DNA of 45,555 nt from UHGV virus genome UHGV-2198558. One strand, written 5' to 3'. Both the position numbers and the translations under genes were made by a program. The stretch comes from a virus. Below, one piece after another: positions 3,682 to 34,537 of the stretch (the first letter of the stretch is position 1; the number at the start of each line of letters is the position of its first letter). Below the pieces are notes generated by a model, which worked only from the letters and a program-made list of their open reading frames with translations, did not search any database and was not told where the DNA came from.

Positions 3682-3695
3682 AAGACCACGACCTT

Positions 3696-4253: not shown

Positions 4254-4258
4254 CTGCC

Positions 4259-5131: not shown

Positions 5132-5291
5132 TACAAAGCTCTCCTTCAAGAATGTATGGGATAGTCAATCCTCAAAACGAACAAATATTCTTATTGAAAT
5201 CTGTGCAACCCTACAAAGTTTATCAAAGACTTTTCAACGCTGAAAACGTTAGAAATGCGAAATTTGGCGTAGGCATTGCATCTTTGATCAC

Positions 5292-7915: not shown

Positions 7916-8140
7916 GCCGCGGCATTCGGAGCATGGCAATTAGATCATTACATTTGTTAGTCAGGGCGCGCACTGGCGGACAGATGCTCATAGCGGAAAT
8001 AACATCACGATTTGGAGTCTGTATAGACTGACAAGGTGTATTTCGTGTGGACATCGTCCCCTGCGTGCCTTTTTCTCTGGGACAGCAGTCGCGTTATGGG
8101 CATCTGCCGCTTGGTGTGTTCCTTGCAGAAAGGAACGATT

Positions 8141-8863
8141 ATGGAAAACGCAAATGTTCAGAATGCTGCCGCTATCACCGATAAGACCACCCTCGGCGAA
8201 CTGCTTGCAATGCTTGACCTCGCTGATAAGGCAGGCAAGATGCCGACACCGAGAGAACTGTTTGAGACTGCCGGTTCGCCGATAGCCGATATGAATGGCT
8301 GCACTCTCTTCAGCAACGGCTTCGCCATCTATCAGAATGTCACTGGGCGCACTGTTGTCTGGCTGCCGTACTGCAAGAGCTTCACCTATTACTTCGGCAA
8401 GCTCCGTGATTCCGAGAAAGACACGCTGACAGAGACCTATGAGCTGCCGGATGGATTTCTGGAAACACAGCCGTGGGTGATCGCAGTAACACTGATCGGC
8501 GACCATCGTGTGGAGGCAAACAGCATGAACCGCACCGGCAGCCGCAAGGATACCACAGATTATGACAGCGCCGATAACGGCGATAAAGACGGTGATGCAG
8601 AGGAGGCTTTGGCAGATCCGTATCGCAGGGCATTCAACTGGTATGACGGACGCATGGGCGAGAATCCGCAGGATGCCGTGGAGCGCAGAGAGACACGCGA
8701 GGAGATGCTTGCAGACATGACGGACAAGCAGCGTGAAGCCTTTATTATGTACTTCAGGGATGGTATGACGCAGGAAGAGATTGCTTCATATATAGGGGTA
8801 AGCCGTGATTCCATAAATGACAGGCTTGAAGGTGCTTTGAAAAAAGCAAAAAAATATTTTTAG
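8141..8863 (+). CDS. Sigma-70 region-4-like HTH protein (putative phage transcription regulator)
   Basis: C-terminus LTDKQREAFIMYFRDGMTQEEIASYIGVSRDSINDRLEGALKKAKK resembles sigma region 4; no region 2 recognised. Start at ATG 8141 after GAAAGGAA. Confidence 0.65.
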   Translation: MENANVQNAAAITDKTTLGELLAMLDLADKAGKMPTPRELFETAGSPIADMNGCTLFSNGFAIYQNVTGRTVVWLPYCKSFTYYFGKLRDSEKDTLTETYELPDGFLETQPWVIAVTLIGDHRVEANSMNRTGSRKDTTDYDSADNGDKDGDAEEALADPYRRAFNWYDGRMGENPQDAVERRETREEMLADMTDKQREAFIMYFRDGMTQEEIASYIGVSRDSINDRLEGALKKAKKYF

Positions 8864-11795: not shown

Positions 11796-14681
11796 GTGGT
11801 GATTTTATTGAGCAGACGTGTACTTTCCATCGACTTAGAGACCTATTCGGATGTAGACCTCCCGAACTGCGGTGTGTACCGCTATGTTGAGGGAGATTTC
11901 CATATCCTGCTGTTCGCATATGCATTTGACGATGAGGAGACAAAATGCGTGGATATGGCCTGCGGGGAGCAGCTCCCGGCAGAGGTCGTGGATGCGCTGC
12001 AGGATGACAGTATTATCAAATCGGCATGGAACGCACAGTTTGAGCGTACCTGCCTTTCAAAATATCTCGGTACGCAGATTTCTCCGGACTCGTGGCAATG
12101 CACGATGGTATGGGCGGCATCGCTTTCACTTCCGCTGAAGCTGGCAACGGCTGCACAGGCACTGAAAACTGCACAGCAGAAGGACGCTGTCGGTGAGCGT
12201 CTTATCCGTTATTTCTCTCTGCCCTGTAAGCCCACCAAAGCAAACGGCGGCAGAACAAGAAATCTGCCGGAACACGCCCCCGAAGACTGGAAGCTGTTCA
12301 AAAGCTACTGCATACAGGACGTGGAAACCGAGCGGGATATCCGCCGCAGGCTTGAAAAGTTCCCCCTGCTCCCGCAGGAATGGGACTACTACCACATGGA
12401 TCAGCGGATCAATGATCGCGGTATCCTGATCGACAAAGAGCTTGTGCAGCAGGCTATTATCTGCAATATGGCAATGTCCGAAGAAATGACAAAACGTGCA
12501 TACGCTCTGACAGGACTTGAAAATCCGAATTCCGTATCACAGCTCAAGGGATGGCTTGAGGAGCGTGGCATTGAGGTGGATTCCCTCGGCAAAAAGAATG
12601 TCGCTTCTCTTATCACAGACCTCGACAGGCACAGCGCAGACGGTGAGGCTCTGGATATGATGAAGCTGCGGTTGCAGATGGCAAAGTCCTCTGTGAAAAA
12701 GTATCAGGCGGCAGAGAGATACATCTGTCAGGACGGCAGGGCGCACGGACTGTTTCAGTTTTCCGGAGCTCAGCGAACACAGCGCTGGTGTCTTACCGGC
12801 GATCATGAAATACTGACAGATAAAGGCTGGCTCAGGCTTGATAATTGGCAGGGCGGTAAGATTGCTTGTTGGAATCCTAATCAGGAAATGGTCTCGTTCC
12901 AGAAAGCGAACGTATTGTGCTTTGAATATGACGGTCCTATCTACCGCTATGAGGACAAACGGATCGATCAGATCAGCACGCCGGATCACAAAATGCGTGT
13001 AAAGAAACGGTATAACGGCGAGTGGACGGATGACACTGTTGGCAATATGGAAAAGTATCGTCCTTCTATTCCGTTTACCGGACGCAGACAAACGATGCCC
13101 GGCTTGGAGCACGCAGAACTGAGGGTACTGGTGATGACGCAGGCTGACGGCAGCTATAAAGAAGATGGAATGCTCTGCTTCCATTTCAAGAAGAAAAGGA
13201 AAATAGAACGGTGCAAACATCTGCTCAGACAGGCGGGCATTTATTTCACAGTGAATGAATGCAGGACAGATGGAACAACGCAGATCAAGATTCCTTCCCG
13301 TGAGCAGCCGATGTATCTAAGAATGTTTCATAACAAGACATTTGGAATGTGGCTTCTCGATGAAAGCCCGGATGTTTTCTTTGATGAGCTTCGGTATTGG
13401 GACGGATCGCAAAGCGCCAAAAACAGTATCCAATATACCACAACGAACAAAGTGAATGCCGATATTGTTCAGGCTTTTGCTCATACAAGTGGTCGCTGTG
13501 CAAAAATGAAAACGGTCATCCGGGATAAAGAACACCCGAATTGGAGCGATGCATACTATCTCGATATATGGCTCACTCCGAAAAACTGTCATGAAATCAG
13601 AGTGAAGCCGACTATCTCGCAATTCAGCGGCAAAATATACTGTGCTGAAACCCCAACCGGATACTTCCTTGTAAGACGTAATGGTAAAGTGTGGGTAACA
13701 GGAAACAGCGGGCGCGGCATTCAATTACAGAACCTGCCGCAGAACCACATCTCTACCCTCGATGAAGCAAGAGAACTTGTCAAAATGGGCTGCTTTGACA
13801 TGATCGAAGCACTGTACGGCAATACGCCGGATATCCTGTCACAGCTTATCCGCACGATGCTCATTCCGAAGGACGGCTGTGAATTTATCGTGGCAGACTT
13901 CTCCGCCATTGAAGCGAGAGTACTTGCGTGGCTTGCCGGAGAACAGTGGCGGCTCGATGCCTTCAAGCGTGGCGAGGATATTTACTGTGCATCCGCATCG
14001 CAAATGTTCGGTGTTCCGGTCGTGAAGCACGGCATCAATGGAGAACTGCGGCAGAAAGGCAAGGTCGCTGAGCTTGCCTGTGGTTACGGAGGTGGCAGCG
14101 GTGCGCTGATCTCTATGGGTGCGCTGGATATGGGACTGAAAGAGGATGAACTTCCCGACATCATTTCAAGCTGGCGCGATGCAAACCCGGAGATCGTGAA
14201 ATTCTGGTATGCCGTGGAGAAAGCGGCGATCGAAACAGTCAAGGACCACGCGGAAAGAACGGTCGGCAGGATCGGTTTTCAGTTCTCTGCAAATACACTG
14301 TGGATCGTGCTGCCGTCCGGGCGCAGACTTGCCTACATCAAGCCGAGGTTACAGCCGAACCGTTTCGGGCGTATGGCGCTGACCTTTGAAGGACTCGGTG
14401 CAAACAACAAATGGACGCGCGGTGAGACATACAGCGGCAAGCTGACGGAGAACATCACACAGGCGACCGCCCGTGACCTGCTTGCAGAGGCAATGCACCG
14501 AATGGAGCTTGCGGGACTTGACATAGTCGGTCATGTGCATGATGAGGTCATTTTGGAAGTGCCGAAAAGACAATATACGGTCGATGATGTGTGCAATATC
14601 ATGAATCAAAATCCGAGATGGGCAGACGGTCTGCCCTTATCATCTGCCGGATATACCGGCAATTACTACTTCAAAGACTGA
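11796..14681 (+). CDS. Family-A DNA polymerase (3'-5' exonuclease plus polymerase) interrupted by an intein
   Basis: Exo motif SIDLETYSD; polymerase motif A FIVADFSAIEARVLAW, motif B RQKGKVAELACGYGGG, motif C HVHDEVILE. Start uncertain (GTG 11796 or TTG 11808). Confidence 0.85.
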   Translation: MVILLSRRVLSIDLETYSDVDLPNCGVYRYVEGDFHILLFAYAFDDEETKCVDMACGEQLPAEVVDALQDDSIIKSAWNAQFERTCLSKYLGTQISPDSWQCTMVWAASLSLPLKLATAAQALKTAQQKDAVGERLIRYFSLPCKPTKANGGRTRNLPEHAPEDWKLFKSYCIQDVETERDIRRRLEKFPLLPQEWDYYHMDQRINDRGILIDKELVQQAIICNMAMSEEMTKRAYALTGLENPNSVSQLKGWLEERGIEVDSLGKKNVASLITDLDRHSADGEALDMMKLRLQMAKSSVKKYQAAERYICQDGRAHGLFQFSGAQRTQRWCLTGDHEILTDKGWLRLDNWQGGKIACWNPNQEMVSFQKANVLCFEYDGPIYRYEDKRIDQISTPDHKMRVKKRYNGEWTDDTVGNMEKYRPSIPFTGRRQTMPGLEHAELRVLVMTQADGSYKEDGMLCFHFKKKRKIERCKHLLRQAGIYFTVNECRTDGTTQIKIPSREQPMYLRMFHNKTFGMWLLDESPDVFFDELRYWDGSQSAKNSIQYTTTNKVNADIVQAFAHTSGRCAKMKTVIRDKEHPNWSDAYYLDIWLTPKNCHEIRVKPTISQFSGKIYCAETPTGYFLVRRNGKVWVTGNSGRGIQLQNLPQNHISTLDEARELVKMGCFDMIEALYGNTPDILSQLIRTMLIPKDGCEFIVADFSAIEARVLAWLAGEQWRLDAFKRGEDIYCASASQMFGVPVVKHGINGELRQKGKVAELACGYGGGSGALISMGALDMGLKEDELPDIISSWRDANPEIVKFWYAVEKAAIETVKDHAERTVGRIGFQFSANTLWIVLPSGRRLAYIKPRLQPNRFGRMALTFEGLGANNKWTRGETYSGKLTENITQATARDLLAEAMHRMELAGLDIVGHVHDEVILEVPKRQYTVDDVCNIMNQNPRWADGLPLSSAGYTGNYYFKD
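12789..13706 (+). mobile_element. Intein (306 aa) within the DNA polymerase, with candidate LAGLIDADG homing-endonuclease motifs
   Basis: Starts CLTGDHEILTDKGW (block A, Cys1) and ends VWVTGN followed by Ser; internal LRVLVMTQADGSY and LRYWDGSQ motifs. Inserted in ...GAQRTQRW / SGRGIQLQNLP. Confidence 0.7.
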
Positions 14682-14694
14682 GGAGGATATTCTT

Positions 14695-15744
14695 ATGAAA
14701 CAGGGACGAGCATTACCGGAAGTGCTGACAGAGCTTCAGAGACAGAATGCAGCAAAGCAGGATTATATTGGCACGGCAGAGGCGTTCCGTCTGGACGAGG
14801 ACGGCAGCACCTTCCGGATCGGTGACGATCACAGCTTTGGTACCACACAGCTTTTCCATCGTCAGGTGGCATCGGCACTCGGCATTCCGGCGAAGTATTA
14901 CGACATGATGCAGAAACAGAAGCCTGACCTTCTGGCAGACAATGTGAATGCATGGTTCAGTGACAAGGGCAGCAGCTACATGGTGCGTACCCTTGATTAC
15001 GGCAGCGGACAGGTTGCGAGAGCCTTTCTGTCTGACCGTTACCGCCGTATCGATAACCTTGAAATTGCCTCGGCTGTTCTCCCGATTTTCGCCGGACAGG
15101 AAGGCATGGAGGTCATGAGCTGCGAGGTCACAGAGAATAAGCTGTATCTGAAGATCGTCAATCACCGTCTGGAAATGGCGTGTGTCGGTGACCGTGTGCA
15201 GGCAGGTGTCATCATCTCCAATTCGGAGGTTGGACTCGGTGCTGTGTCTGTTCAGCCGCTTGTCTATACACTTGCCTGCACCAACGGCATGGTGGTCAAC
15301 AGTATGGGCGAACGCCGTACCCATGTCGGCAGGGCGGCGAAAGCACTGGAAGACAGCTTCAATATCTACACAAATGAAACCCTCGAAGCCGAAGATAAGG
15401 CATTCATGCTGAAGCTCCGTGATACCACAATGGCAGCAATTGAAGAGGCTCGTTTCGCACAGATCATCGGTGTGTTGGAGCAGAGCCACGGCGCAAAGAT
15501 CACAGGACGTGTGCAGGATGTCATCGAACTGACCGGCAAGGCGTATGACCTGAATCAGTCGGAACAGGACAGCATTCTGAACTATCTCATCAAGGGCGGC
15601 GATCTTTCCCTCTATGGTCTGAGCAATGCCATCACACGCGCTTCGCAGGATGTAGATTCCTACGACAGAGCCACTGCGTTAGAGGGCATCGGCTGGCAGG
15701 TGGCGACCATGCCTGCAAATCAGTGGAAGGAGATCAACGCATGA
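14695..15744 (+). CDS. DUF932-like phage/plasmid protein
   Basis: GAGGAGGA RBS; 349 aa; segments AFLSDRYRRIDNLE and VIISNSEVGLGAVS match my recollection of DUF932/TIGR03299 proteins. Confidence 0.6.
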   Translation: MKQGRALPEVLTELQRQNAAKQDYIGTAEAFRLDEDGSTFRIGDDHSFGTTQLFHRQVASALGIPAKYYDMMQKQKPDLLADNVNAWFSDKGSSYMVRTLDYGSGQVARAFLSDRYRRIDNLEIASAVLPIFAGQEGMEVMSCEVTENKLYLKIVNHRLEMACVGDRVQAGVIISNSEVGLGAVSVQPLVYTLACTNGMVVNSMGERRTHVGRAAKALEDSFNIYTNETLEAEDKAFMLKLRDTTMAAIEEARFAQIIGVLEQSHGAKITGRVQDVIELTGKAYDLNQSEQDSILNYLIKGGDLSLYGLSNAITRASQDVDSYDRATALEGIGWQVATMPANQWKEINA

Positions 15745-15974
15745 GCAGAACCTGGAAAGACAGAAAAGGATATAAAACACGCAGAAAACGACACGGATAT
15801 CCTGTGCCGGAGATCTGCAATTACACACGCGGCAGCTATGAAGATTATGACCACAGCGATGAGGAACTGTATGTCGATGACCAGTGCTGCGAGAACTGCC
15901 GCTTTTGCGGATGTTGCCGTCATACACCGTTCCCGTCGGGCTGGTGCGAATACTGGAAGGACGGCACACATTGA
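15741..15974 (+). CDS. Small cysteine-rich protein
   Basis: ATG overlaps the previous stop (ATGA); cysteine cluster CCENCRFCGCC. Confidence 0.45.
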   Translation: MSRTWKDRKGYKTRRKRHGYPVPEICNYTRGSYEDYDHSDEELYVDDQCCENCRFCGCCRHTPFPSGWCEYWKDGTH

Positions 15975-16411
15975 GAGAATATGTTGTCGAAAACGAGTTT
16001 GTCAAGGCGGTAAAAGCGGCAGGCGGTGTGGCATACAAGCTGACATCGCAGACCGCAAACGGACTGCCGGACAGACTCGTTCTGTTCCCGGCGGCAAAGA
16101 CGATTTTCGTGGAGCTGAAAGCACCGGGGAAAATGATGCGACCGTTGCAGCGTAAAAGACGGTATCAGCTTATGAAACTCGGCTTTCCGGTGCTGTGCAT
16201 TGACAGGATGCCGCAGATCAAGCCGTTCATATCAGCAGCATTGTCATGGACACCCGGTGAGCCGTTCCCGGAAGGCATCGGTGCGAAGATACCCGATCTG
16301 GAAAGGGCAACGCTGCCGACGGATATGGATAACTTCGGGGAAACGCTTGAACCCATCGATCCAGACAATCTGATAGAGTTTTATGAAATAGAGGACGGTG
16401 ATGATGCATGA
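15971..16411 (+). CDS. VRR-NUC domain nuclease
   Basis: GLPDRLVLFP...FVELKAPGK...LQRKRRYQ pattern. Start uncertain (TTG 15971 after GGAAGGA, or ATG 15911). Confidence 0.65.
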   Translation: MREYVVENEFVKAVKAAGGVAYKLTSQTANGLPDRLVLFPAAKTIFVELKAPGKMMRPLQRKRRYQLMKLGFPVLCIDRMPQIKPFISAALSWTPGEPFPEGIGAKIPDLERATLPTDMDNFGETLEPIDPDNLIEFYEIEDGDDA

Positions 16412-16905
16412 TTAACCCTAAACGCAGAGCTGTGAGAAAAAGCTGCTCATACTGCGGAACTGTCTTTACCTATGTCGGAAGTCATGGTACAAGAAATAAG
16501 CATTTTTTCTGTTCTCATGAATGCTATATTGCCTTTAAGACAAAGAAAGCAGAAGTGAAATGCGATTGGTGCGGCAAATCAATGCTGAAAAAACGCTCTG
16601 ATATATGGAGAACGGATCACAATTTCTGCTGCCCCGAATGCTGTTTACTGTATAGGCAAAAGCAAGGCGAAACTTCATGGAATCATCGTGTGAATGGAAT
16701 AACCGTACACAGGGGCATTTTGGAGAAGAAGCTCGGACGAGAACTGCGTGCGGATGAAGAAGTACACCTTATCGATGGTAACCATTTCAATAATGATCCG
16801 GACAATCTCATCGCCCTTTCCAAATCGGAACACGCCAAAATTCATTCTTCTTGGAAAGCGAGGGACGAGTATGGAAAATACGTTAAAACGCAGTCAGATT
16901 CATGA
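16408..16905 (+). CDS. HNH homing endonuclease with N-terminal zinc-finger-like CxxC pairs
   Basis: HLIDGNHFNNDPDNLIALSKSEHAKIH HNH motif; ATGA overlap with the VRR-NUC stop. Confidence 0.8.
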   Translation: MINPKRRAVRKSCSYCGTVFTYVGSHGTRNKHFFCSHECYIAFKTKKAEVKCDWCGKSMLKKRSDIWRTDHNFCCPECCLLYRQKQGETSWNHRVNGITVHRGILEKKLGRELRADEEVHLIDGNHFNNDPDNLIALSKSEHAKIHSSWKARDEYGKYVKTQSDS

Positions 16906-18253
16906 ATACCAAAAATACTGTGTTGACTTTATTAAGTCTCATCCCGTATCAGCACTCTTTTTGGATTGCGGACTTGGAAAGACGATCATTTCATTGACTG
17001 CAATATATGATCTAATGTTTGATGAGCTGAAGGTATCTAAAGTTCTTGTAATTGCCCCTCTAAGAGTGACAAATGTCTGGAAAGCGGAGGTTCAGAAATG
17101 GAGTCATCTGCAAGATGTTGATGTTGCGATAGTAGTCGGAACTGTAAAACAGCGGATTGCTGCGATTAACAGTAACGCTCTTGTTTACGCTGTCAACCGT
17201 GAAAATGTGAAGTGGCTCGTAGAGTATTACGAGAAGAACGGTCTTCGCTGGGATTACGATATGATCGTCATTGACGAGCTGAGTTCCTTCAAAAACTACC
17301 AGTCACAGCGGTTCAAATGGTTGCGTAAGGTTCGGCCTTTCGTGAAGCGCTGGGTAGGATTGACAGGAACGCCGACTTCCAACGGTCTCATGGACCTGTG
17401 GGCAGAGATCGGTATCCTTGACGGCGGTGAGCGGCTCGGACGGTTTATAGGCAGATTTCGTGAAAGCTATTTCAAGCCTGCGTCCATGAATCCGTCAACC
17501 GGTGTTGTTTTCAGCTACACCCCACGTCCCGTCGCAGAGGAGCAGATCTATAACAAAATCTCCGACATTACGATTTCCATGAAGGCACTGGATTATCTGG
17601 ATATGCCGGAATGTATCTTCGTCAATCATGAGGTCGAGATGAATGCAGCAGAGCGAAAACTATACGATCAGCTGAAACAGGATCTTATCATTCCGCTTGA
17701 GGACGGAGATATCGATGCTGCCAACGCTGCCTCTCTCTCCAACAAGCTGCTCCAGATGGCTAACGGCGCGGTCTATGACGAAAACAAGGAAGCCCGAATC
17801 ATTCACAGCCGGAAACTGGAAATGCTGGAAGACCTGATCGAAGCCGCAAACGGACAGCCTGTTCTGGTCGGCTACTGGTTCAAGCATGACCGCACTCGCA
17901 TCATGGAGCATCTAACCGCCTGCGGTTACAGCCCTCGTGATATAAAGGATTCCGCCGACATCACAGACTGGAACGCCGGAAACATCCCGGTCGCTCTTAT
18001 ACACCCCGCTTCGGCAGGACACGGTCTGAACATTCAGTCCGGTGGCCATATCATGATCTGGTTCGGTCTGACATGGAGCTTAGAGCTTTATCAGCAGACA
18101 AATGCGCGTTTGTGGAGGCAGGGACAGAAGCACACTGTCACGATCCACCACATCGTAACAAAAGACAGTGTCGATGAGGATGTGCTTGCTGCTTTGGCCA
18201 ATAAGGATGTAACACAGGAGAAATTGATCGCCGCTGTCAAGGCGAGATTATAG
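16871..18253 (+). CDS. SNF2-family helicase
   Basis: Walker A LDCGLGKT, motif II DELS, helicase C-terminal motifs. Start at ATG 16871 (MENTLKRSQIHEYQ); overlaps the HNH gene by 35 nt. Confidence 0.85.
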   Translation: MENTLKRSQIHEYQKYCVDFIKSHPVSALFLDCGLGKTIISLTAIYDLMFDELKVSKVLVIAPLRVTNVWKAEVQKWSHLQDVDVAIVVGTVKQRIAAINSNALVYAVNRENVKWLVEYYEKNGLRWDYDMIVIDELSSFKNYQSQRFKWLRKVRPFVKRWVGLTGTPTSNGLMDLWAEIGILDGGERLGRFIGRFRESYFKPASMNPSTGVVFSYTPRPVAEEQIYNKISDITISMKALDYLDMPECIFVNHEVEMNAAERKLYDQLKQDLIIPLEDGDIDAANAASLSNKLLQMANGAVYDENKEARIIHSRKLEMLEDLIEAANGQPVLVGYWFKHDRTRIMEHLTACGYSPRDIKDSADITDWNAGNIPVALIHPASAGHGLNIQSGGHIMIWFGLTWSLELYQQTNARLWRQGQKHTVTIHHIVTKDSVDEDVLAALANKDVTQEKLIAAVKARL

Positions 18254-18338
18254 GATCATACTCTCCGTATGATCCGCACTGAAAAGACGACAAAGCGGCG
18301 ACAAAACGGTTACACCGCACTCTATGGAGGTGAAAACT

Positions 18339-18842
18339 ATGGCGCGTAAGAACAAACGCCTGAAAACAGAATACCACAGAGGTCTCGGTTTTGATCCGCG
18401 AAAGTATATGACTTCCTACTCCCACCAAACTCGCTGTGAATCAATTCCGACTCCCGACCGTGCTCCAAAGCGCGGCGATATCTGGTTTGCGCGGCTCGGC
18501 ACACATCCGAATTCCAGTGTGCAGGGCGGCACCCGTCCCGTTATCATCATTTCTAACGACCTCGGCAACGAACACGCTGACACCGTCAATGTTGTGCCGA
18601 TGACCAGACACCTGAAAAAGCCGGAGCTGCCTTGTCACACTCCGCTTTCTCCCGGCAGCATTACCGATAGCAGACAGCCGCTTGAACTGTCAATGGTGCT
18701 GGCGGAGCAGCTCACAACTGTCAGCAAGAACGCACTTCGCTATTATGCAGGTCATATTTCCGATGACGAAGCTATGAACCGCATCGAAACCGCTGTTATT
18801 GCGCAGCTCAGTCTTGAAAGGAGATATTCCAAATGCCTGTGA
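18339..18842 (+). CDS. MazF/PemK-like protein with a 48-aa basic N-terminal extension
   Basis: GDIWFARLGTHPNSSVQGGTRPVIIISND and NVVPMT parallel E. coli MazF GDLIWVDFDPTKGSEQAGHRPAVVLS and CVPCTT. GGAGGT RBS 7 nt before ATG 18339. Confidence 0.6.
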   Translation: MARKNKRLKTEYHRGLGFDPRKYMTSYSHQTRCESIPTPDRAPKRGDIWFARLGTHPNSSVQGGTRPVIIISNDLGNEHADTVNVVPMTRHLKKPELPCHTPLSPGSITDSRQPLELSMVLAEQLTTVSKNALRYYAGHISDDEAMNRIETAVIAQLSLERRYSKCL

Positions 18843-21262
18843 ATTTTGTCAATATCCCAGATGTTCTGAAGCAGACCGCTTCTTTCTGTGTCTGGAAGCT
18901 GGAAAAGAGATCCGGCAGACCGACCAAAGTACCGTATAACCCTCGCACCGGTGCAATGGCGAGAACCAACGATCCGTCTACCTTTGCAGACTTCAATACA
19001 GCAATGAAATCCTATGCCATCGGCGGATGGGACGGTATCGGCTATCGTGTCAGCGAAGGCATCGGTGCAATCGACATCGACCACTGCATCCGTGAGGACG
19101 GCAGTCTCAATGATGTTGCAGCATCCATTCTCGGTATCTTCCCCGATGCGTACTTTGAGCGCAGCCCCTCTGGTACCGGCTTGCGCGGCTTTTTTCGCCT
19201 TTCTCCTGATTTCGCCTACGATAAGACTGTGTACTACATCAACAACCGAAAGCACGGTCTGGAGGTCTATCTTCCCGGTGTGACGAACCGCTTTGTGACT
19301 GTTACAGGAGATATGTTCCGCAATGGTGCAGTTACCCGAAATGACGGTTCCCTGCGCACACTACTTGATACCTTCATGAAGCGCAGCACCCGTGTATCTT
19401 CCAAGACTGTCGAGCCTGTGTCCTATCTCGATGATGACGGTGTTATCGCTCACGCATCGGCATCTGAATCCGGCGACAAGTTCAAAGCACTGTATGCCGG
19501 TAACTGGGAGGAAGGCTACGATTCCCAGTCCGATGCAGATATGGCGCTTGTGTCTATCCTTGCATTCTGGTGCGGTAATGTCGAGGAGCAGATCGACCGT
19601 ATCTTCCGAACTTCCGGTCTGATGCGTGATAAGTGGGATCGTATGACCGGAGACAGAACTTACGGACAGATCACGATCCGCAATGCTGTCGCTACCAATT
19701 CCGCTGTCTATACACCGATTCAGGATTCTACGGCAGAAGATGACTTTGACGATATCGAGGGCGATGCGGAAAATGAGCAGCTTATGTTTGAGCCTGATCT
19801 CACCCATGTTTCCCTGACGCTGGAAGAAATGCAGCCGCACACGAATCCCCGCTATCAGCGTGACGAGATCGGCATCGGATATGCATTTGCGGATTATTAT
19901 AAGCCCATCGCTCGTTTTGACCGTGAGCGCGGCATCTGGTATGTCTTTGACGGGAAGGTGTGGCAGCCGGACGAGAATGCGCTTGCCGTGGCGGAGCTTG
20001 CAAAGCGTCTGGCAGACAGGCTGTATACCTTTGCCCTTCAGATCAAGGATGAGGACACACGCAACCGCTATATCAAGCGAGTGCAGAAGCTGCAAATGCG
20101 GAAGAACCGCCGCACCATGATCGAAGATGCGAAATCCGTGTATCCAGTGCCGCACGCTATCTTTGACCGCAATACCTACCTTTTCAACTGTCAGAACGGG
20201 ACACTGAACCTCACCACAGGTGAATTCCGTCCGCACGATCCGGCAGACTTTCTCACCATGATGTCCGGTGTCACTTATGATCCGAACGCCACCTGTCCAC
20301 GATGGGAGCAGTTCATTTCCGAAGTTATGTGTAATGATGCTGACCTCGCATTATACTTGCAAAAAGCCCTCGGATATGCGCTTACCGGCGACACATCACT
20401 GGAATGCCTGTTCATCCTCTACGGTGCAACATCCAGAAACGGCAAAGGCACCACAATGGAGACCTTTCTCAAAATCATGGGCGACTACGGCAAAACCTCC
20501 AATCCGGAGATGCTGTCTACGAAATTCGGCAACACCAATGCTTCCGGACCGTCCGAAGAGATCGCCCGGCTTGCGGGTGTCCGTTTTGTCAATATCTCCG
20601 AGCCGGAGAAGAAGATCACCTTCAATGCGGCACTGGTAAAGCGTATGACGGGTAATGATACACTGAATGCACGTTTCCTGCATGAGAATTCCTTCGACTT
20701 CCGACCGAATTTCAAGATCTTCATCAATACGAATTACAAACCGTCCGTTTCTGATATGACACTGTTTTACTCCAACCGTCTGAAGCTCATTCCGTTCAAA
20801 CGCCATTTTGAGGAGCATGAGCAGGACAAAGGTCTGAAAGCATTTTTCAGTACGTATGTCTGCCTCTCTGCCATCTTCAACTGGTGCTATGAAGGATATA
20901 AGCGGTTCCGTTCCGAAGATCTGGAAGATCCGGCTGCTGTATCTCAAGCAACCAAGGAGTATCAGGAGGAGTCTGACCGTATCGGGCAGTTTGTGGATGC
21001 GTGGCTCGAAGAAGGCGAAGCATTTGAAGTCCGTACCTCTGCGGCATATAAGCTGTACGGTGAATGGTGCGATAAATATGGCTACCGCAAGGAAAACAGC
21101 ACCAACTTCAATAACGCGATCCAGCGTTTCTTCCCCATCGTGCGTAAGCGCCCGAACGATACTAAGGGTGCGCAGAAAACAACGATGCTTGTGGGCTGTC
21201 GTTTTCTGGAGCATGAAAACGGCGAAGCTGACGAACCAGAGGAGTTTGCAGCTTTGGAGTAA
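18833..21262 (+). CDS. Primase-helicase (Prim-Pol N-domain plus P4-type primase NTPase)
   Basis: Prim-Pol motifs GAIDIDHC and SPSGTGLRGFF; Walker A ILYGATSRNGKGTT; 809 aa; GAAAGGAG RBS. Confidence 0.85.
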   Translation: MPVNFVNIPDVLKQTASFCVWKLEKRSGRPTKVPYNPRTGAMARTNDPSTFADFNTAMKSYAIGGWDGIGYRVSEGIGAIDIDHCIREDGSLNDVAASILGIFPDAYFERSPSGTGLRGFFRLSPDFAYDKTVYYINNRKHGLEVYLPGVTNRFVTVTGDMFRNGAVTRNDGSLRTLLDTFMKRSTRVSSKTVEPVSYLDDDGVIAHASASESGDKFKALYAGNWEEGYDSQSDADMALVSILAFWCGNVEEQIDRIFRTSGLMRDKWDRMTGDRTYGQITIRNAVATNSAVYTPIQDSTAEDDFDDIEGDAENEQLMFEPDLTHVSLTLEEMQPHTNPRYQRDEIGIGYAFADYYKPIARFDRERGIWYVFDGKVWQPDENALAVAELAKRLADRLYTFALQIKDEDTRNRYIKRVQKLQMRKNRRTMIEDAKSVYPVPHAIFDRNTYLFNCQNGTLNLTTGEFRPHDPADFLTMMSGVTYDPNATCPRWEQFISEVMCNDADLALYLQKALGYALTGDTSLECLFILYGATSRNGKGTTMETFLKIMGDYGKTSNPEMLSTKFGNTNASGPSEEIARLAGVRFVNISEPEKKITFNAALVKRMTGNDTLNARFLHENSFDFRPNFKIFINTNYKPSVSDMTLFYSNRLKLIPFKRHFEEHEQDKGLKAFFSTYVCLSAIFNWCYEGYKRFRSEDLEDPAAVSQATKEYQEESDRIGQFVDAWLEEGEAFEVRTSAAYKLYGEWCDKYGYRKENSTNFNNAIQRFFPIVRKRPNDTKGAQKTTMLVGCRFLEHENGEADEPEEFAALE

Positions 21263-21301
21263 AAGTAGACTTTTCTCCGTATTTACGCTGTTTTCCGCAG
21301 T

Positions 21302-21500
21302 TGGGGCAGCGTGGGGCAAGTTTTTTCGGTGGTTATTATTATTACTTCTCTTTATATATATTACTATTTTTACTTGCCCCTACTTGCCCCAAATAAATAA
21401 AAACAATAGAAAAGATAAGAAGAATAGAGGATTTTCACTGATTTGAACCATTACCCATTTTGCACTGTTTTGAACCTTGCCCGATGCTGTCACTGACAAA
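21302..21500. promoter_or_regulatory. Putative replication origin / regulatory region downstream of the primase gene
   Basis: Tandem tacttgcccc x2 (21371-21390) with inverted partner ggggcaag (21313-21320), AT-rich core 21331-21420, and repeated tttgaacc motifs. Confidence 0.35.
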
Positions 21501-21568
21501 GAGTGTGTAAGCGACAAAGCGTGGCAAGGTCAAAATCCAATAAACAATCATACAGGAGGAACACGAAT

Positions 21569-22663
21569 ATGAGAATCATTACTTCAGAACAGGTATCCGC
21601 AGGACATCCCGACAAGATCTGTGACCAAATCGCGGATGCCATCGTGACAGACTGCCTTCAGCATGACCGCAGCAGTCGTGTTGCGATAGAGTGTCTTTTC
21701 AAGAACCGCTGTCTTGTGATCGCCGGTGAGCTGACCAGTACCCATGAGCCGGACTACAAGGCTCTGGTGCAGCAGGTGTTCGACCGTATCAACAACGGCG
21801 GAGCTGAGAACAGCGATGCGGGACTTGACTACAAGCTGGACTTCACCGCCGATGATCTGGACATTGCGATTCTGGTCGATCACCAGAGCAATGACATTGC
21901 GCTCGGTGTGAATGTCGGCGGTGCAGGAGATCAGGGTATGATGTACGGCTATGCGACCAACGAAACGCCGGAGATGCTCCCGATCCCCTTCGTGCTGGCT
22001 ACCAGATTTCTGGAACTGCTGAAAGCCTACCCCTGCCGTATGCTGAAAGCCGATGCAAAGGCACAGGTCAGCTATGACTATGACAGCGGTCGCATTACCA
22101 CCTTCCTCTGCTCGGTGCAGCATACACACGATGTGGATGTTGAGGACTTCAAGCCCATCATCGAAAAGCTGATGGTGAGAACGGCAACCGAATACGGGCT
22201 GAATACAGACTTTGCAAAGCTCGTCAACCCGACCGGCAGATTTGTCATAGGCAGTTCCTTTGCGGACTGCGGCGTTACCGGACGCAAGCTCGCCTGCGAT
22301 ACCTATGGCGGTATCGGGCATATCGGCGGCGGTGCAATGTCCGGCAAAGATCCGTCTAAGGTTGACCGCAGCGGCGCATATGCAGCAAGAAAAATCGCAA
22401 GGGATATCGTCAGCGCCGGATATTCAGACAAGGCAGAGGTGCAGATCGCATACGCCATCGGTGTGGCAGAGCCCGTATCCGTGTATGTAGAGACTTTTGG
22501 CACGGAGCATCAGGATACGGAGTTCATCAACCAGTATGTTCGTGAGAATTATGACCTCACGCCGAGGGGAATCATCGAAGGGCTGCATCTGCTCGATGTG
22601 GACTATAACGCCATTTCCGCATACGGACACTTCGGAAAACAGAACCTTCCGTGGGAACTATAA
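21569..22663 (+). CDS. metK: S-adenosylmethionine synthetase
   Basis: Collinear with bacterial MetK: SAGHPDKICDQIAD, GAGDQGMMYGYA, DTYGG, GGGAMSGKDPSKVDRSGAYAARKIA; GGAGGA RBS before ATG 21569. Confidence 0.88.
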   Translation: MRIITSEQVSAGHPDKICDQIADAIVTDCLQHDRSSRVAIECLFKNRCLVIAGELTSTHEPDYKALVQQVFDRINNGGAENSDAGLDYKLDFTADDLDIAILVDHQSNDIALGVNVGGAGDQGMMYGYATNETPEMLPIPFVLATRFLELLKAYPCRMLKADAKAQVSYDYDSGRITTFLCSVQHTHDVDVEDFKPIIEKLMVRTATEYGLNTDFAKLVNPTGRFVIGSSFADCGVTGRKLACDTYGGIGHIGGGAMSGKDPSKVDRSGAYAARKIARDIVSAGYSDKAEVQIAYAIGVAEPVSVYVETFGTEHQDTEFINQYVRENYDLTPRGIIEGLHLLDVDYNAISAYGHFGKQNLPWEL

Positions 22664-22689
22664 TAAATTTTTTGAAATTTTTTTTGATT

Positions 22690-22733
22690 GGATACCCACA
22701 AAATGCCCTCTCCCACGACAGTATATGAGGGGC
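22690..22733. repeat. Copy 2 of the 44-bp intergenic repeat
   Basis: ggatacccacaaaatgccctctcccacgacagtatatgaggggc; hairpin preserved through an A-U to G-U change. Confidence 0.6.
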
Positions 22734-22826
22734 GTTGTTCAGACCGACCACAAACACACTACAAACCAAGCGGGACTGACCGCCCCTATCACTATGCAAC
22801 ACCACTGTGGAAAGGAGGCAGAGACA

Positions 22827-23186
22827 ATGCCAAGCAGACCAAAAACACCATGCAGACACCCCGGCTGTGCTGCGCTCGTACCTTATGGCACCAAGTATTG
22901 TGACAAGCACCGTTCTCTCCATCCGGAGGACACACGCTCCGCAGGCAGTCGAGGCTATGGCACCACATGGAACAAGACCCGCAAGCGTTACCTTGAGACG
23001 CATCCGCTGTGCGTGGAGTGCATGAAGCAAGGGCGCTATATCAAGGCGACCGATGTCGATCACATCATGCCGCACCGAGGAGACAATGTTCTCTTCTGGG
23101 ATCAGAGCAACTGGCAGAGCCTCTGCCACCGACACCACAGCATCAAGACCCGAAATGAGGATCACACCCCCGAGTACAAGTACTAA
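22827..23186 (+). CDS. HNH endonuclease (small phage type)
   Basis: AAAGGAGG RBS; CRHPGC...CDKH...PLCVEC...DVDHIMP...N.QSLC..HH pattern; 119 aa. Confidence 0.8.
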   Translation: MPSRPKTPCRHPGCAALVPYGTKYCDKHRSLHPEDTRSAGSRGYGTTWNKTRKRYLETHPLCVECMKQGRYIKATDVDHIMPHRGDNVLFWDQSNWQSLCHRHHSIKTRNEDHTPEYKY

Positions 23187-23644
23187 ACGCAAGCCACACT
23201 CACTATCGTTGCAGTTCAGGCAGTCTCAGGGGTGTACCTATGGGCGGGGCTGGGGGCTGGGGTTGCCCGCCGGGGCGGGTTCACTTCTCTGTGTGAAAGC
23301 GAACACAAGACCGTCGGCCCCTCTCGTGTGAAAAAACGCGAATTTGCAAGGGCCCCGGTCATTTGGGACCCTGACAGAGATATATTAGCTGTAAATGAAA
23401 TACTGTGCAGAAAACAGAAAACGCAGATTTTTCGTGCTTTTCCATATGCTGCCGTAGGAAACTGCGGCGGCAGGATACATACAGAGTTTCGTTACAAAAT
23501 GCACTGTAAAACGGCGAATTTACGTCAAAAAGCGATAGAATTAGCACATTTTTAGCGCCAAACCGCATTTTACAGTTTTATTCTTGGCGGAGCCCGTGTG
23601 GATACCGAAAACCGCATAAAATCAGAAGTTTCGAGGTGAATCAG

Positions 23645-27185: not shown

Positions 27186-27499
27186 GAGCCAGACTGAAAC
27201 CGCCGGGAGATGCTGTCCGCTGCGATGCCTGCGGATGTGCCTTTGTGCCGGAGCCGAAAATGCAGCGTGAGGGAGAGATCGAATACAGCTTCCTCAACTG
27301 TGATTACTGTGGCAAAGCGTATATCGTGTCTGTGACCGATGCCGCACTCCGCCGGAGCATCCGCAAGTACCGGACGCTTGCCGAAAAGCTGAAGGGCAAG
27401 CCGTTGAGTGAAGATACGCTCCGTGAGGTCACGGCGCTGAAGGATGCGAACACAAAAAGAGCCGCAGAGCTGCGGCAGATGTATATTCGGGAGGGATGA
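27182..27499 (+). CDS. Hypothetical zinc-ribbon protein
   Basis: CDACGC...CDYCGK; ATG overlaps the nrdG stop. Confidence 0.5.
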   Translation: MRARLKPPGDAVRCDACGCAFVPEPKMQREGEIEYSFLNCDYCGKAYIVSVTDAALRRSIRKYRTLAEKLKGKPLSEDTLREVTALKDANTKRAAELRQMYIREG

Positions 27500-27500
27500 G

Positions 27501-28772
27501 ATGAAAACAGCAGAACTTCGCATGATCCCTGTCTCGGAGCTGAAGCCTGCGGAATACAATCCGCGTAAAAAGCTGAAGCCCGGCGACAAGGAATACGAGA
27601 AGATCAAAAACAGCATCGAGGAATTCGGCTTTGCCGACCCGCTTGTTGTCAACGCCGACATGACGATCATCGGCGGACACCAGAGACTGACCGTAGCAAC
27701 GGCGCTCGGTTACACGGAAGTTCCGTGTGCGGTGGTGGACATCGACAAAGTCCGTGAGAAGGCACTGAACATTGCGCTGAATAAGATCACGGGTGCATGG
27801 GACGAGAATCTTCTGGCGGAACTTCTCGAAGATATCCAGAGCAGCGATTTCGACCTCGGCAAGACCGGCTTTGATCCGCCGGAGATCGAGCAGCTTTTCA
27901 ATGCCGTTCATGACAAGCAGGTCAGTGAGGACAGCTTCGATGTGGAGGAGGAGCTGCAAAAGCCGACATTCTCGCAGCCGGGAGATATCTGGATTCTCGG
28001 CAGGCACAAAGTCATCTGCGGCGATAGTACAATCGCAGAGACATACACCAAGCTGATGGACGGGCAGAAGGCAAACCTCGTCCTGACCGATCCTCCGTAC
28101 AATGTGGATGTTGAGGAAACTGCCGGAAAGATCATGAATGACAACATGAGCGACAGTGATTTCTATAGCTTCCTGCTTTCCGCTTACAAGTGTATGTATG
28201 ACAGTCTTGCCGATGACGGCAGCATTTATGTATGGCACGCCGACACCGAGGGGCTGAACTTCCGCAGAGCGTTCAAGGAGGCAGGCTTCCAGCTTTCTGG
28301 CTGCTGTATCTGGAAGAAGAATTCTCTGGTGCTGGGCAGAAGCCCCTATCAGTGGATTCATGAGCCGTGTCTCTTCGGGTGGAAACAGAAGGGCAAGCAT
28401 CAGTGGTATGCCGACCGCAAGCAGACAACTGTATGGGAGTATGACAAGCCCAAGAGCAGCCCCGATCATCCGACCACAAAGCCTATCCCGCTGATGGCGT
28501 ACCCGATCAAGAACAGCACCATGACCAACGGCATCGTTCTCGATCCGTTCCTCGGCAGCGGTTCGACACTGATCGCCTGTTGCGAGACAGACCGTGTTTG
28601 TCGGGGCATCGAGCTTGATCCGAAGTTCGTGGATGTCATTGTCAAGAGGTATCTGGCATGGTGCCAAGAGAAGCAGACCGCCGAGGTCGCATATGTCATT
28701 CGTGATGGACAGAAGCTCACCTATGAGGAGGCTATCGCAGCGATGCCGCAGGGCGGTGATGCAGTTGAGTGA
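27501..28772 (+). CDS. ParB-like nuclease domain fused to a DNA methyltransferase (N6-adenine/N4-cytosine class)
   Basis: N-terminal ParB-like segment (PAEYNPR...IIGGHQR); methyltransferase motif IV TDPPY and motif I DPFLGSGST; GGGAGGG RBS. Confidence 0.82.
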   Translation: MKTAELRMIPVSELKPAEYNPRKKLKPGDKEYEKIKNSIEEFGFADPLVVNADMTIIGGHQRLTVATALGYTEVPCAVVDIDKVREKALNIALNKITGAWDENLLAELLEDIQSSDFDLGKTGFDPPEIEQLFNAVHDKQVSEDSFDVEEELQKPTFSQPGDIWILGRHKVICGDSTIAETYTKLMDGQKANLVLTDPPYNVDVEETAGKIMNDNMSDSDFYSFLLSAYKCMYDSLADDGSIYVWHADTEGLNFRRAFKEAGFQLSGCCIWKKNSLVLGRSPYQWIHEPCLFGWKQKGKHQWYADRKQTTVWEYDKPKSSPDHPTTKPIPLMAYPIKNSTMTNGIVLDPFLGSGSTLIACCETDRVCRGIELDPKFVDVIVKRYLAWCQEKQTAEVAYVIRDGQKLTYEEAIAAMPQGGDAVE

Positions 28773-29544
28773 TGTGAAGTGTGTATTATATCACGACAAC
28801 TTCCAAAACTTCAAAGGCTACAGCATCCCGAAAGCGCAGCTCGTCATCGCTGACATCCCGTACAACATCGGCGGCGATTTTTACGCAAGCCGCCCCGACT
28901 GGTATGTGGACGGTGACAATCAGAACGGCGAAAGCAGCAAAGCACATAAGGCGGCATTCCATACAGATTACAGCTTTAACATTGCTGAATACTTCGCCTT
29001 CTGCAACCGACTGCTCAAAAAAGAGCCGCCAAAAGGTGAAAAGGATGCGCCGTGCATGATCGTGTTCTGTGCCTTTCAGCAGATACCGGAAGTCATCCGG
29101 CAGGCGGAGAAATACGGCTTCAAGAAGTATCAGTTTTTGTGTTTTATGAAGAATTACAGTCCGCAGGTGTTGAAGGCGAACATGAGGATCGTGGGCGCAA
29201 CGGAATACGCTCTGGTGCTGTACCGGGGCAAGCTGCCGAAATTCCGAAACACGGATGAGAATGGCAAACACCACATGATCTTCGACCATTTTGACTGGAT
29301 GCGGGACGGCAAGGATATCCCGAAGATACATCCTTCGCAGAAGCCGGTAAATCTCCTGAAACGGCTGATCGGGATATTTACCGACGAGGGTGATGTGGTC
29401 ATCGATCCCTGCGCCGGTTCCGGCTCAACGCTGCGTGCGGCGAGGGAGCTTGGCAGACACAGCTACGGCTTTGAAGTCAGCCGGGATTTTTATAATAAAG
29501 CCTGTGAACTGATGCTTGGGGAGGATACCGATGACGAAGCATGA
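28759..29544 (+). CDS. Second DNA methyltransferase (N6-adenine/N4-cytosine class)
   Basis: ADIPYNIG (DPPY-like) and IDPCAGSGST (motif I); start overlaps the previous gene. Confidence 0.72.
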   Translation: MQLSDVKCVLYHDNFQNFKGYSIPKAQLVIADIPYNIGGDFYASRPDWYVDGDNQNGESSKAHKAAFHTDYSFNIAEYFAFCNRLLKKEPPKGEKDAPCMIVFCAFQQIPEVIRQAEKYGFKKYQFLCFMKNYSPQVLKANMRIVGATEYALVLYRGKLPKFRNTDENGKHHMIFDHFDWMRDGKDIPKIHPSQKPVNLLKRLIGIFTDEGDVVIDPCAGSGSTLRAARELGRHSYGFEVSRDFYNKACELMLGEDTDDEA

Positions 29545-29776
29545 ATGTGCGGTCGTGACCGCTTACACAGAGATTTCTATGCTCAAGGGCGACGATCTGA
29601 AATATCTGTATGACTATCTTTCCGGCTTTATCGGCAGACCGGTGTATACACACGAGATTTCTGCTGTGGTGATGGCTTACAGAGAGCAGATCAGGGAGGA
29701 CTTCCTCGATCTGTGCAGGAACGCAAAGGAGGCGGATGATGGATCAGAAACACTTGACTCTCGGCAGCTTATTTGA
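29531..29776 (+). CDS. Hypothetical small protein
   Basis: GGGGAGGA RBS before ATG 29531; overlaps flanking methyltransferase genes. Confidence 0.4.
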   Translation: MTKHECAVVTAYTEISMLKGDDLKYLYDYLSGFIGRPVYTHEISAVVMAYREQIREDFLDLCRNAKEADDGSETLDSRQLI

Positions 29777-34424: not shown

Positions 34425-34537
34425 GAGATCCTATTCCATTGTATCCGAGTATACCATAGAATTTCAAGTATATCAAGTGTACACATACACCAGATATGAG
34501 CAATGTATTTTCCTCGATATTCTGTGGTTTTAGCGGC

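Follow-up and report, generated by a model that had tools for sequence, protein, structure and literature searches.

A solitary MazF-family gene in the replication operon of Ruminococcus/Oscillospiraceae phages encodes a candidate antitoxin-free endoribonuclease

MazF is usually discussed as one half of a toxin-antitoxin (TA) pair. The solved proteins closest to the one described here, MazF of Bacillus subtilis (EndoA/YdcE) and of Staphylococcus aureus (4MDX, 1NE8, 4MZM), are chromosomal type II toxins. Kid/PemK of plasmid R1 is a MazF-fold RNase tied to replication control through cleavage of copB-repA mRNA, and ToxN-type type III toxins are endoribonucleases of Kid/MazF-like fold that have no protein antitoxin. 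Phage T4 encodes RegB, a stand-alone endoribonuclease with a TA-toxin-type fold and no antitoxin, which acts early and inactivates mRNAs in the lytic programme. In EzeT, a cis-acting antitoxin domain is fused to the toxin (Rocker & Meinhart 2015, as cited in PMC10865869). In this study, we analyzed a stretch of 45,555 nucleotides from the virus genome UHGV-2198558 (the whole of this stretch is referred to as the window) and characterized a MazF-like gene that lies between the genes for an SNF2-family helicase and a primase. Our sequence analysis suggests, with a probability of roughly one half, that this gene encodes an antitoxin-free MazF endoribonuclease of the lytic programme, fixed in the replication operon of Ruminococcus/Oscillospiraceae phages.

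The window protein has the same fold as the B. subtilis and S. aureus toxins, is 36-38% identical in its core to these chromosomal Firmicutes MazFs, and conserves the equivalents of Arg25/Thr48, Pro26, Asn36 and Lys85 as well as the LP.H and EQ motifs. However, its gene has no mazE upstream and is located in a phage replication operon, where it overlaps the primase gene; the protein itself carries a 43-aa N-terminal extension, and one of its loops is a residue longer and has Val in place of Glu20. T4 RegB differs in its RelE/YoeB-like fold and S1-assisted cleavage at GGAG, has no sequence relationship to the window protein and belongs to another host and type of phage. Kid/PemK differs in having an antitoxin (Kis/PemI), other catalytic residues and a plasmid location. 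Compared to ToxN systems, the window lacks the upstream array of ~36-nt RNA repeats with a terminator; only two 11-nt repeats are present, with no Rfam match. The likeness to EzeT lies in a single polypeptide with an N-terminal addition to the toxin domain and no separate antitoxin gene, but the antitoxin domain of EzeT is folded and its toxin is a zeta kinase, whereas the window protein has a 24-aa basic peptide on a disordered linker, without antitoxin homology.

The gene was delimited as in the initial annotation (18339-18842), with ribosome-binding site, ATG and stop codon all in place: the start ATG is at 18339, GGAGGTG lies 6 nt upstream of it, and the stop codon TGA occupies 18840-18842. 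A longer reading of 172 aa from an ATG at 18324 was rejected, since this ATG is not conserved in relatives and all homologues begin with MARKN or MGRKN. The motifs on which a MazF fold had originally been proposed were found at residues 46-53 (GDIWFARL), 65-72 (TRPVIIIS) and 84-89 (NVVPMT), and the hidden Markov model check suggested at that time gave a match far beyond chance. Pfam PemK_toxin (PF02452, gathering cut-off 23.1 bits) matched residues 44-155 over profile positions 1-107 of 109 (E=8.8e-22, 77.8 bits), and the phrog_1936 profile ('MazF-like growth inhibitor') matched residues 40-163 (E=1.1e-26). The best solved relatives in sequence searches were B. subtilis EndoA/MazF (4MDX, 1NE8; E=2e-15), followed by S. 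aureus MazF. An AlphaFold2 (AF2) monomer model, built from 50 homologues, gave the MazF barrel with moderate confidence (core predicted local distance difference test [pLDDT] score ~60-85) and a helix at residues 143-156. With this model, the top 50 matches of a Foldseek search of the PDB were all MazF toxins (target-normalised template modelling [TM] score 0.70-0.82), led by those of S. aureus and B. subtilis (E ~1e-8; TM 0.77-0.81). PADLOC and NCBIfam searches with the MazF protein gave no match.

Arg25 and Thr48 are the key catalytic residues in B. subtilis/B. cereus MazF, and their mutation abolishes activity (PMC7354611). Their counterparts in the alignments, Arg66 (in GGTRP) and Thr89 (in VVPMT), were invariant in 50 family members; the possibility that catalytic residues are absent, raised in the initial annotation, was thus checked and both residues were found. 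Pro67, Asn77 and Lys130 were also invariant in these members (equivalents of Pro26, Asn36 and Lys/Arg85, positions highlighted for MazF-Da in PMC8634880). Coordinates of these residues and of the other features of the locus are shown in Table 1.

Table 1. Features of the MazF locus and its immediate neighbours (window positions)
Feature	Coordinates	Strand	Evidence
SNF2-family helicase, 460 aa from ATG 16871	16871..18253	+	Pfam SNF2-rel_dom 8.5e-20
Perfect 9-bp hairpin GGATCATAC-TCTCC-GTATGATCC, right after helicase stop, no T-run	18253..18275	+	Sequence, RNA fold
Helicase-MazF spacer, 85 bp, without conserved ORF	18254..18338	+	ORF and frame comparison, Rfam, RNA fold
Two 11-nt direct repeats (CGACAAAxCGG type)	18288..18309	+	TRF score 37, alignments
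Shine-Dalgarno sequence GGAGGTG of MazF gene	18326..18332	+	Sequence; invariant in 12 aligned relatives
MazF/PemK-family coding sequence, 167 aa	18339..18842	+	Pfam PF02452, phrog_1936, PDB 4mdx, Foldseek MazF matches
Conserved basic N-terminal peptide, residues 1-24 (MARKNKRLKTEYHRGLGFDPRKYM), net charge +6	18339..18410	+	Near-invariance, pN/pS
Variable linker, residues 25-43	18411..18467	+	Length variation, pN/pS, AF2 pLDDT <50
PemK/MazF domain, residues 44-155	18468..18803	+	Pfam envelope; AF2 beta-barrel with C-terminal helix; Foldseek
Val61 codon, position of beta1-beta2 loop Glu20 of B. subtilis MazF	18519..18521	+	Alignments
Arg66 codon, equivalent of B. subtilis MazF catalytic Arg25	18534..18536	+	Invariant in alignments A1, A2, A6
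Thr89 codon, equivalent of B. subtilis MazF Thr48	18603..18605	+	Invariant in A1 and A2, nearly invariant in A6
Translational-coupling junction: primase Shine-Dalgarno GAAAGGAGA (18816-18824), primase ATG 18833, MazF stop 18840-18842	18816..18842	+	Sequence
Primase-polymerase/D5-type helicase, overlapping downstream neighbour, 809 aa	18833..21262	+	Pfam D5_N 1.3e-34, NrS1-1_pol-like_HBD 4.6e-28, Pox_D5
Terminator-like hairpin and T-run after primase, possible end of transcription unit	21282..21325	+	Consensus scan; site number no higher than shuffled

The MazF gene was initially annotated as solitary, and, at the level of sequence, this was borne out on every side. No antitoxin open reading frame (ORF) was present on either flank, a Pfam scan of the window's 64 small ORFs gave no antitoxin-type family (MazE/AbrB, RHH, Phd or other) among the 25 listed out of 32 matched families, and no type III-like RNA was detected. 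The neighbourhood departs from the adjacency of type II systems, the upstream neighbour being a 460-aa helicase and the downstream neighbour an overlapping 809-aa primase. Since the primase start at 18833 lies inside the 3′ end of the MazF gene, there is no room for a downstream antitoxin. Upstream, the gap reported after the helicase proved exact at 85 bp (helicase stop TAG, 18251-18253). A check for small ORFs on both strands of 18250-18340, as had been advised, turned up only non-conserved frames, of 26 aa (+, 18269-18349), 35 aa (-) and 63 aa (-). In most close relatives, the spacer has 11 extra nt, a third copy of the repeat, so that every frame crossing this indel is shifted. The 26-aa ORF was rejected as an antitoxin because the indel puts the conserved nucleotides in another frame in relatives, and the 63-aa antisense frame because it contains stop codons in many of them.

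An RNA antitoxin or riboswitch in the spacer was not supported either. The spacer had no match in Rfam, no compensatory change was seen in any predicted pair among aligned relatives, its RNA folding energy was unexceptional (z=-1.06), and the element is replaced below ~55% identity. The array of ~36-nt RNA repeats with terminator that marks type III antitoxins is absent; TRF detected only an 11-nt unit present in 2.0 copies (score 37). Among relatives with 39-55% identity, some spacers consist of a terminator-like GC hairpin with a T-run, and two contain only a ribosome-binding site after the helicase stop. Given this replacement in distant relatives, no RNA antitoxin is conserved. A promoter scan of the spacer found no sigma-70-like site, site counts being equal to the shuffled expectation.

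Among close relatives, the spacer sequence is conserved. The core of the hairpin that follows the helicase stop (ATAC-N5-GTAT) is kept in these relatives, without compensatory changes, and more distant relatives have terminator-like hairpins or nothing at this position. Most close relatives have three copies of the 11-nt repeat, compared to two in the window, and the repeats are absent in relatives below ~55% identity; they could be protein-binding sites or ACA-containing sites in the leader RNA. In the homologous spacers of loci L004-L032, 11-nt repeats of the GACGACAnnnn type are spaced one helical turn apart, with a variant in L020, L026 and L034. Two words were considered as genome-wide operators and were not supported: GRCGRCAA (24 occurrences versus 7.4 expected) was scattered and nearly always on the coding strand, and was read as compositional, and CGGTWACRCCG (5 versus 1.6 expected) was not enriched, 4 of 100 shuffles reaching 5. 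In a relative from a Ruminococcus metagenome-assembled genome (MAG; locus L130, 2216-2533, -), the spacer contains a reverse-oriented 105-aa lipoprotein-like gene with a signal peptide and an acidic ETTAE-rich repeat. The position of this lipoprotein-like moron suggests that the spacer is an insertion hotspot for morons.

The location in a replication module, also part of the initial annotation, was supported by comparison with relatives. Their gene order is DUF2800 nuclease, Enc34-type single-stranded DNA-binding protein, PolA, DUF932, a small ORF, VRR-NUC-like, an optional HNH, SNF2, MazF, primase, and MetK on to NrdD. Synteny of SNF2 helicase, MazF and primase was maintained across about 60 related loci with enough sequence, L082 being the sole exception. 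When IMG/VR was searched with the primase, a MazF homologue (down to 38% identity) was directly upstream wherever the primase was at least 58% identical and upstream sequence was present, again except for L082. This locus was rejected as a clean natural knockout, since the last 42 MazF codons remain and it is a rearranged junction beside a recombinase fragment and an endolysin-like gene. In GTDB, all 20 of 20 genome loci had the order SNF2-MazF-primase wherever flanks exist, and these included the isolate Ruminococcus flavefaciens 007c and MAGs of Ruminococcus and Oscillospiraceae. The exact MazF protein was indexed in 108 collection blocks, on contigs of up to 105 kb, and at least 227 homologues with 62-98% identity were full-length including the extension. 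Given this constancy of presence and position, the gene behaves as a core lytic gene rather than an accessory defence moron. Across the same loci, identity is 60-74% for MazF but 84-89% for the flanking SNF2 helicase, so that MazF is the faster to diverge.

The MazF and primase genes overlap by 10 nt, and the overlap was also found in homologues at 63-98% identity. The C-terminal 'ER..CL' of MazF is conserved because its last codons encode the Shine-Dalgarno sequence of the primase. No promoter-like sites above chance were detected for the MazF operon. Besides a CI/LexA-type repressor and a sigma-like factor, the window encodes both terminase subunits (large and small), along with portal-region and replication genes. 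The presence of the repressor, sigma-like factor and terminase subunits indicates a temperate-type phage or prophage, and the repressor implies that lytic genes should be silent in lysogens.

The N-terminal extension had been described as 48 aa long and Lys/Arg-rich. Its length was revised to ~43 aa, as the Pfam domain starts at residue 44 and residue 4 of B. subtilis MazF aligns with residue 43; the basic character holds for the first 24 residues (8 Lys/Arg versus 2 Asp/Glu) but not for residues 25-43. The two parts also evolve differently. The peptide, with the consensus MARKN[KN]R[LM]KTEYHRGLGFDPRKY (MARKNxRxKTEYxRGLGFDPRKY), was nearly invariant in 50 homologues and more conserved there than much of the catalytic core. 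Pairwise estimates of the Nei-Gojobori type on 32 distinct genes gave a ratio of nonsynonymous to synonymous differences (pN/pS) of 0.27 for the peptide (pS 0.59), 0.71 for the linker (pS 0.68) and 0.35 for the MazF core (pS 0.64). The peptide is under purifying selection, and the linker is near-neutral and freely evolving. As synonymous divergence is similar in all three segments, the constraint acts on the peptide and not on an overlapping nucleotide element. Across the clade, peptide and linker together span about 20 to about 90 aa, and one member has a TVKT repeat; in the shortest relative (L089), all that remains is a GRKNNRKR head followed by a very short linker. The extreme N-terminus, M-[AGS]-R-K-N-[KNR], survives at 39-55% identity and also occurs in L071, a separate phage lineage in which MazF follows a sigma-like regulator.

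The extension had no Pfam match and no significant PDB match. When residues 1-43 were compared with 1.84 billion representatives by phmmer, five matches were returned, all of them fragments of this same gene; the peptide was thus absent outside the family, and neither a fusion of the motif to other domains nor a free peptide was found. A likeness of YHRGLGFDPRKY to the N-terminus of eukaryotic uL3 (RHGSLGFRPRR) was treated as chance (phmmer against PDB, E=4.6); the stretch concerned is HRGLGFDPRKY, at residues 13-24 (window 18375-18410). The architecture of the extension is that of a tethered short linear motif, and its charge argues for the binding of a polyanion or a specific partner. MazE/PemI tails that fill the basic RNA groove are acidic; the strongly basic nature of the peptide therefore disfavours a MazE-like role as groove-filling inhibitor.

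Solitary MazF genes in replication modules recur in unrelated Firmicutes phages. By tblastn, 102 of 50,697 phage records contained MazF-like genes; identity stayed below 60% throughout, and almost every record came from a Firmicutes or gut phage. In Heliusvirales phages and Streptococcus phage Javan405, the order is PolA, primase, SNF2, a phrog_36 sigma-like regulator and MazF, then MetK and DNA methyltransferases; MetK follows MazF in L071 as well as in Javan405. The 160-aa protein upstream of MazF in Javan405/Heliusvirales was rejected as a hidden antitoxin, being the phrog_36 regulator, which has no homologue beside the window gene. In Lactobacillus phage Semele (Herelleviridae), MazF is two genes upstream of a DNA helicase and is preceded only by a 62-aa coiled-coil ORF without an antitoxin domain. 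In at least 10 IMG/VR loci, the genes for prim-pol and D5-helicase are separate and flank a MazF that is 36-38% identical and has the canonical GSEQ loop; next to it are a Dam-like methyltransferase and ThyX, identified by their sequence motifs and not by family search. In L052-L059, L063 and L064 (e.g., L052, 3021-7493), the separate prim-pol and D5-helicase are 280 and 511 aa long, respectively, and the MazF between them has a C-terminal extension.

The phage proteins of PHROG 1936/35650 (Javan405 gp8, those of the Heliusvirales NatCom phages, Semele gp162) resemble the window protein in being solitary and in lying at the end of or inside a replication module, with SNF2 or other helicases, MetK and DNA methyltransferases close by. 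They differ in that they are 35-44% identical to it, mostly lack the N-terminal peptide, and are encoded after a phrog_36 sigma-like regulator rather than before a primase. No member of these families appears to be characterised in the literature, where the four papers found with the PHROG label are, by title, metagenome or virome surveys; similarly, we found no characterised phage-encoded solitary MazF in the literature and no mention of a MazF gene in the Heliusvirales paper.

Three functions were proposed at the outset, of which a repurposed RNase appears to fit best. The catalytic Arg and Thr are intact, and the gene shows core-gene status and co-expression with the primase rather than a moron-like distribution, which together favour an RNase for the lytic programme or host takeover. 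An antitoxin-toxin fusion is disfavoured, since the extension is too short for AbrB or RHH, matches nothing in Pfam or PDB, is basic and is not docked by AF2; a catalytically dead decoy is disfavoured by the invariance of the catalytic dyad across the family. As a lytic RNase, MazF would be made only once the lytic (early/middle) operon is switched on, together with the primase after the repressor is lifted, and no antidote would be needed because the cell would already be committed. The MazF dimer would cut single-stranded RNA, that is, host mRNA and probably early phage mRNA too. Such cutting would shut down host translation and defence expression, and would speed transcript turnover between temporal classes, as stand-alone RegB does for phage T4. 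The basic tail would most likely serve as a flexible tether to a polyanion or partner (RNA, ribosome or replication protein) that raises affinity or directs the enzyme, and is unlikely to be an inhibitor.

Several observations weigh against this antitoxin-free lytic RNase. In the alignments, the beta1-beta2 loop reads [N/G]-[S/T]-S-V-Q-x-G, one residue longer than the canonical G18-S-E20-Q-G-G. Gly18 and Glu20, which are conserved in the UACA-recognising MazF group and define this subgroup rather than the whole PemK/MazF family, are not kept: Val61 replaces the Glu, and the Gly18 equivalent is also lost in the window protein (N58). Because the E20A mutation abolishes the activity of MazF-Da (PMC8634880), the loop change from Glu to Val may have altered activity or specificity. 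Other phage MazF-like proteins also vary at the Glu20 position (His/Tyr, Lys or Cys). RNase activity is therefore probable but, given the loop change, not certain, and the UACAU specificity of the nearest solved relatives cannot be assumed for the window protein. UACAU is not avoided in the sense strand of the window (29 observed versus 30 expected), nor is any word of up to 5 nt avoided there strand-specifically, the strongly depleted words being palindromes. Since no short word is avoided, phage mRNAs would be cut too, or the specificity would have to be long or structural. The AF2 monomer model leaves residues 1-38 disordered (pLDDT <50) and undocked on the core, and is uninformative about the tail. 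Moreover, a temperate phage carrying an unguarded toxin would have to repress it very tightly, and we infer the role in host shutoff only from context and the analogy to T4 RegB. Self-immunity by motif avoidance was not seen, as UACAU is at expectation and the palindromic nature of the depleted words points to restriction avoidance. In the 8.4 kb from VRR-NUC to MetK (15000-23400, +), a single sense-strand UACAU was counted where the window average predicts ~6; having been noticed post hoc, this carries little weight.

Other explanations were compared with the lytic RNase. It is unlikely, though likelier than the remaining rivals, that the enzyme is linked to replication and serves the replisome instead of host shutoff, either cutting nascent transcripts so as to ease transcription-replication conflicts on phage DNA or cleaving its own mazF-primase mRNA to tune primase dosage, with the tail as a tether to nucleic acid, primase or helicase. 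The invariant place between SNF2 helicase and primase, with translational coupling, is consistent with such a link, as are the independent association with helicase and primase genes in other lineages, including the at least 10 IMG/VR loci with split prim-pol/D5-helicase, and the ACA-containing 11-nt repeats in the gene's own 5′ leader in close relatives. A precedent is Kid of plasmid R1, which cleaves an mRNA of its own replicon affecting repA. In E. coli, native amounts of MazF are reported to ease conflicts between transcription and replication at rrn operons (PMC12541390). However, phage gene order often reflects the timing of expression and not physical function, the leader repeats are not conserved below ~55% identity, MazF enzymes cut single-stranded and not hybrid RNA, and no fusion or co-variation with a replication protein was detected. 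Equally tentative is a domesticated antitoxin-free RNase that is a fixed part of the operon and not a general poison, in which the family-specific basic peptide, on its flexible linker, would target or gate the enzyme in cis and which would act with primase and helicase, for example clearing nascent transcripts from replicating phage DNA or setting primase dosage via the shared mRNA. Somewhat less likely is counter-defence through host MazEF. Here, the phage protein would titrate host MazE (both RNases being freed on induction and buffered in lysogens), or form mixed dimers with host MazF that control an abortive-infection or lysis-lysogeny response. Its nearest relatives are indeed chromosomal Firmicutes MazFs (36-38% identity), and its faster evolution relative to the flanking helicase is as expected of a protein at a host interface. 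Host MazEF shapes phage decisions in B. subtilis phi3T (PMC10769878), and cross-neutralisation between non-cognate MazE and MazF was reported (PMC10893535). Nevertheless, the invariant catalytic dyad implies that catalysis itself is selected, which does not suit a pure decoy, and the basic tail is left unexplained.

A single-chain TA system, in which the N-terminal peptide is a tethered cis-inhibitor until proteolysis or a trigger displaces it, appears improbable. The combination of a conserved peptide, a variable flexible linker and a toxin does resemble a tethered regulator, and a temperate phage would gain from a safety catch of the kind for which EzeT is a precedent (cited in PMC10865869). 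However, the peptide is strongly basic (+6), opposite to MazE/PemI tails, shows no MazE/AbrB/RHH similarity by Pfam or PDB, and is left undocked by AF2, albeit in a monomer model when the groove forms in the dimer; in addition, L089 dispenses with all but the GRKNNRKR head and a very short linker. It is still less probable that the gene is half of an ordinary type II or III pair whose antitoxin, a protein or an RNA, went unrecognised, whether close to the gene or in another part of the phage genome. Pfam models are often lacking for novel antitoxins, the window covers only 45.5 kb of the phage, and the spacer is conserved among close relatives; yet neither spacer strand has a frame-conserved ORF, the spacer is not conserved in distant relatives (two with a ribosome-binding site only), it contains no tandem RNA array or Rfam match, the downstream gene encodes an 809-aa primase, and the 64 small ORFs have no antitoxin-type domain among the matches listed. 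We consider least probable, by a little, a catalytically impaired MazF-fold protein kept for binding, as an RNA/DNA-binding regulator or a structural adaptor. In line with this are the missing loop Glu and Gly18 equivalent (V61, N58), the inactivation of MazF-Da by E20A and the added basic tail, suggestive of binding. Against it, Arg66, Thr89, Pro67, Asn77 and Lys130 show no variation, and different loops also occur in active MazFs such as those of mycobacteria.

The domain, the fold and the label of the phage subfamily are already known (Pfam, PHROG and NCBI names), and stand-alone phage RNases have precedent. What appears to be undescribed is a clade-wide, antitoxin-less core-gene MazF coupled to primase, a private selected basic peptide on a neutral linker, and the recurrence of such genes beside helicase and primase genes. 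A clade of gut and rumen phages thus keeps MazF without its antidote, with catalytic residues intact, and recurrence together with core status points to an unstudied phage use of MazF, whether to shut off the host, to control transcript turnover or to serve replication. The small gene, its obvious catalytic mutants and the cultured lysogen R. flavefaciens 007c (prophage contig NZ_ATAX01000017.1) provide a simple experimental system, which could reveal what makes a toxin tolerable when no antitoxin is present.

Additional features were identified in the window. At its left edge, a 503-aa HATPase_c_3 protein (78-1589, -) was matched by PADLOC to the model MzaB (E=2e-92), part of Mza, a candidate anti-phage system, and an adjacent 365-aa ORF (1802-2899, -) had no family match; this region may be defence cargo at the edge of a prophage, or host DNA. 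A leftward block with SRAP peptidase, thymidine kinase and the CI/LexA-type repressor (HTH_3 and Peptidase_S24; 3046-5149, -) faces rightward genes for a 642-aa ImmA/IrrE-HTH protein (5564-7492) and a sigma-70 region-4 protein (8036-8863), and the region of the repressor and ImmA/IrrE looks like a lysogeny switch. PolA (11796-14681, +) is 961 aa long in the window, L006 and L007 versus 651 aa in the close relatives L004, L005 and L008, and the large terminase (888 aa; 41582-44248, +) has its PHROG matches in two separate blocks; both observations suggest insertions, for example of inteins or homing endonucleases. An HNH_3 endonuclease gene between the VRR-NUC-like and SNF2 genes (16408-16905, +) is present in the window, L006 and L007 and absent in L004, L005 and L008, thus behaving as a mobile homing endonuclease; L006 also has an insertion sequence (rve transposase) near this gene. 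An assembly gap, a run of 25 N, is located at 38688-38712.

Downstream of the primase, the window encodes the S-adenosylmethionine synthetase MetK (21503-22663, +; TIGR01034, E=3e-115) and three DNA methyltransferases (27444-32339, +), one of them fused to a ParB-like domain. Palindromes are very strongly avoided in the window, GGCC occurring 22 times versus 159 expected, and CGCG, ACGT, GGWCC, CCWGG, AAGCTT and CAGCTG are avoided as well. MetK, the methyltransferases and palindrome avoidance amount to a heavy investment in anti-restriction. In addition, two amidoligase genes (phrog_2443; 33284-35566, +) were found, with GGACT/AIG2-like, DUF3846, DUF4314, YAcAr/SLOG and DprA-like domains nearby, and this region is the peptide-tagging and nucleotide-modification set of large Firmicutes phages and conjugative elements.

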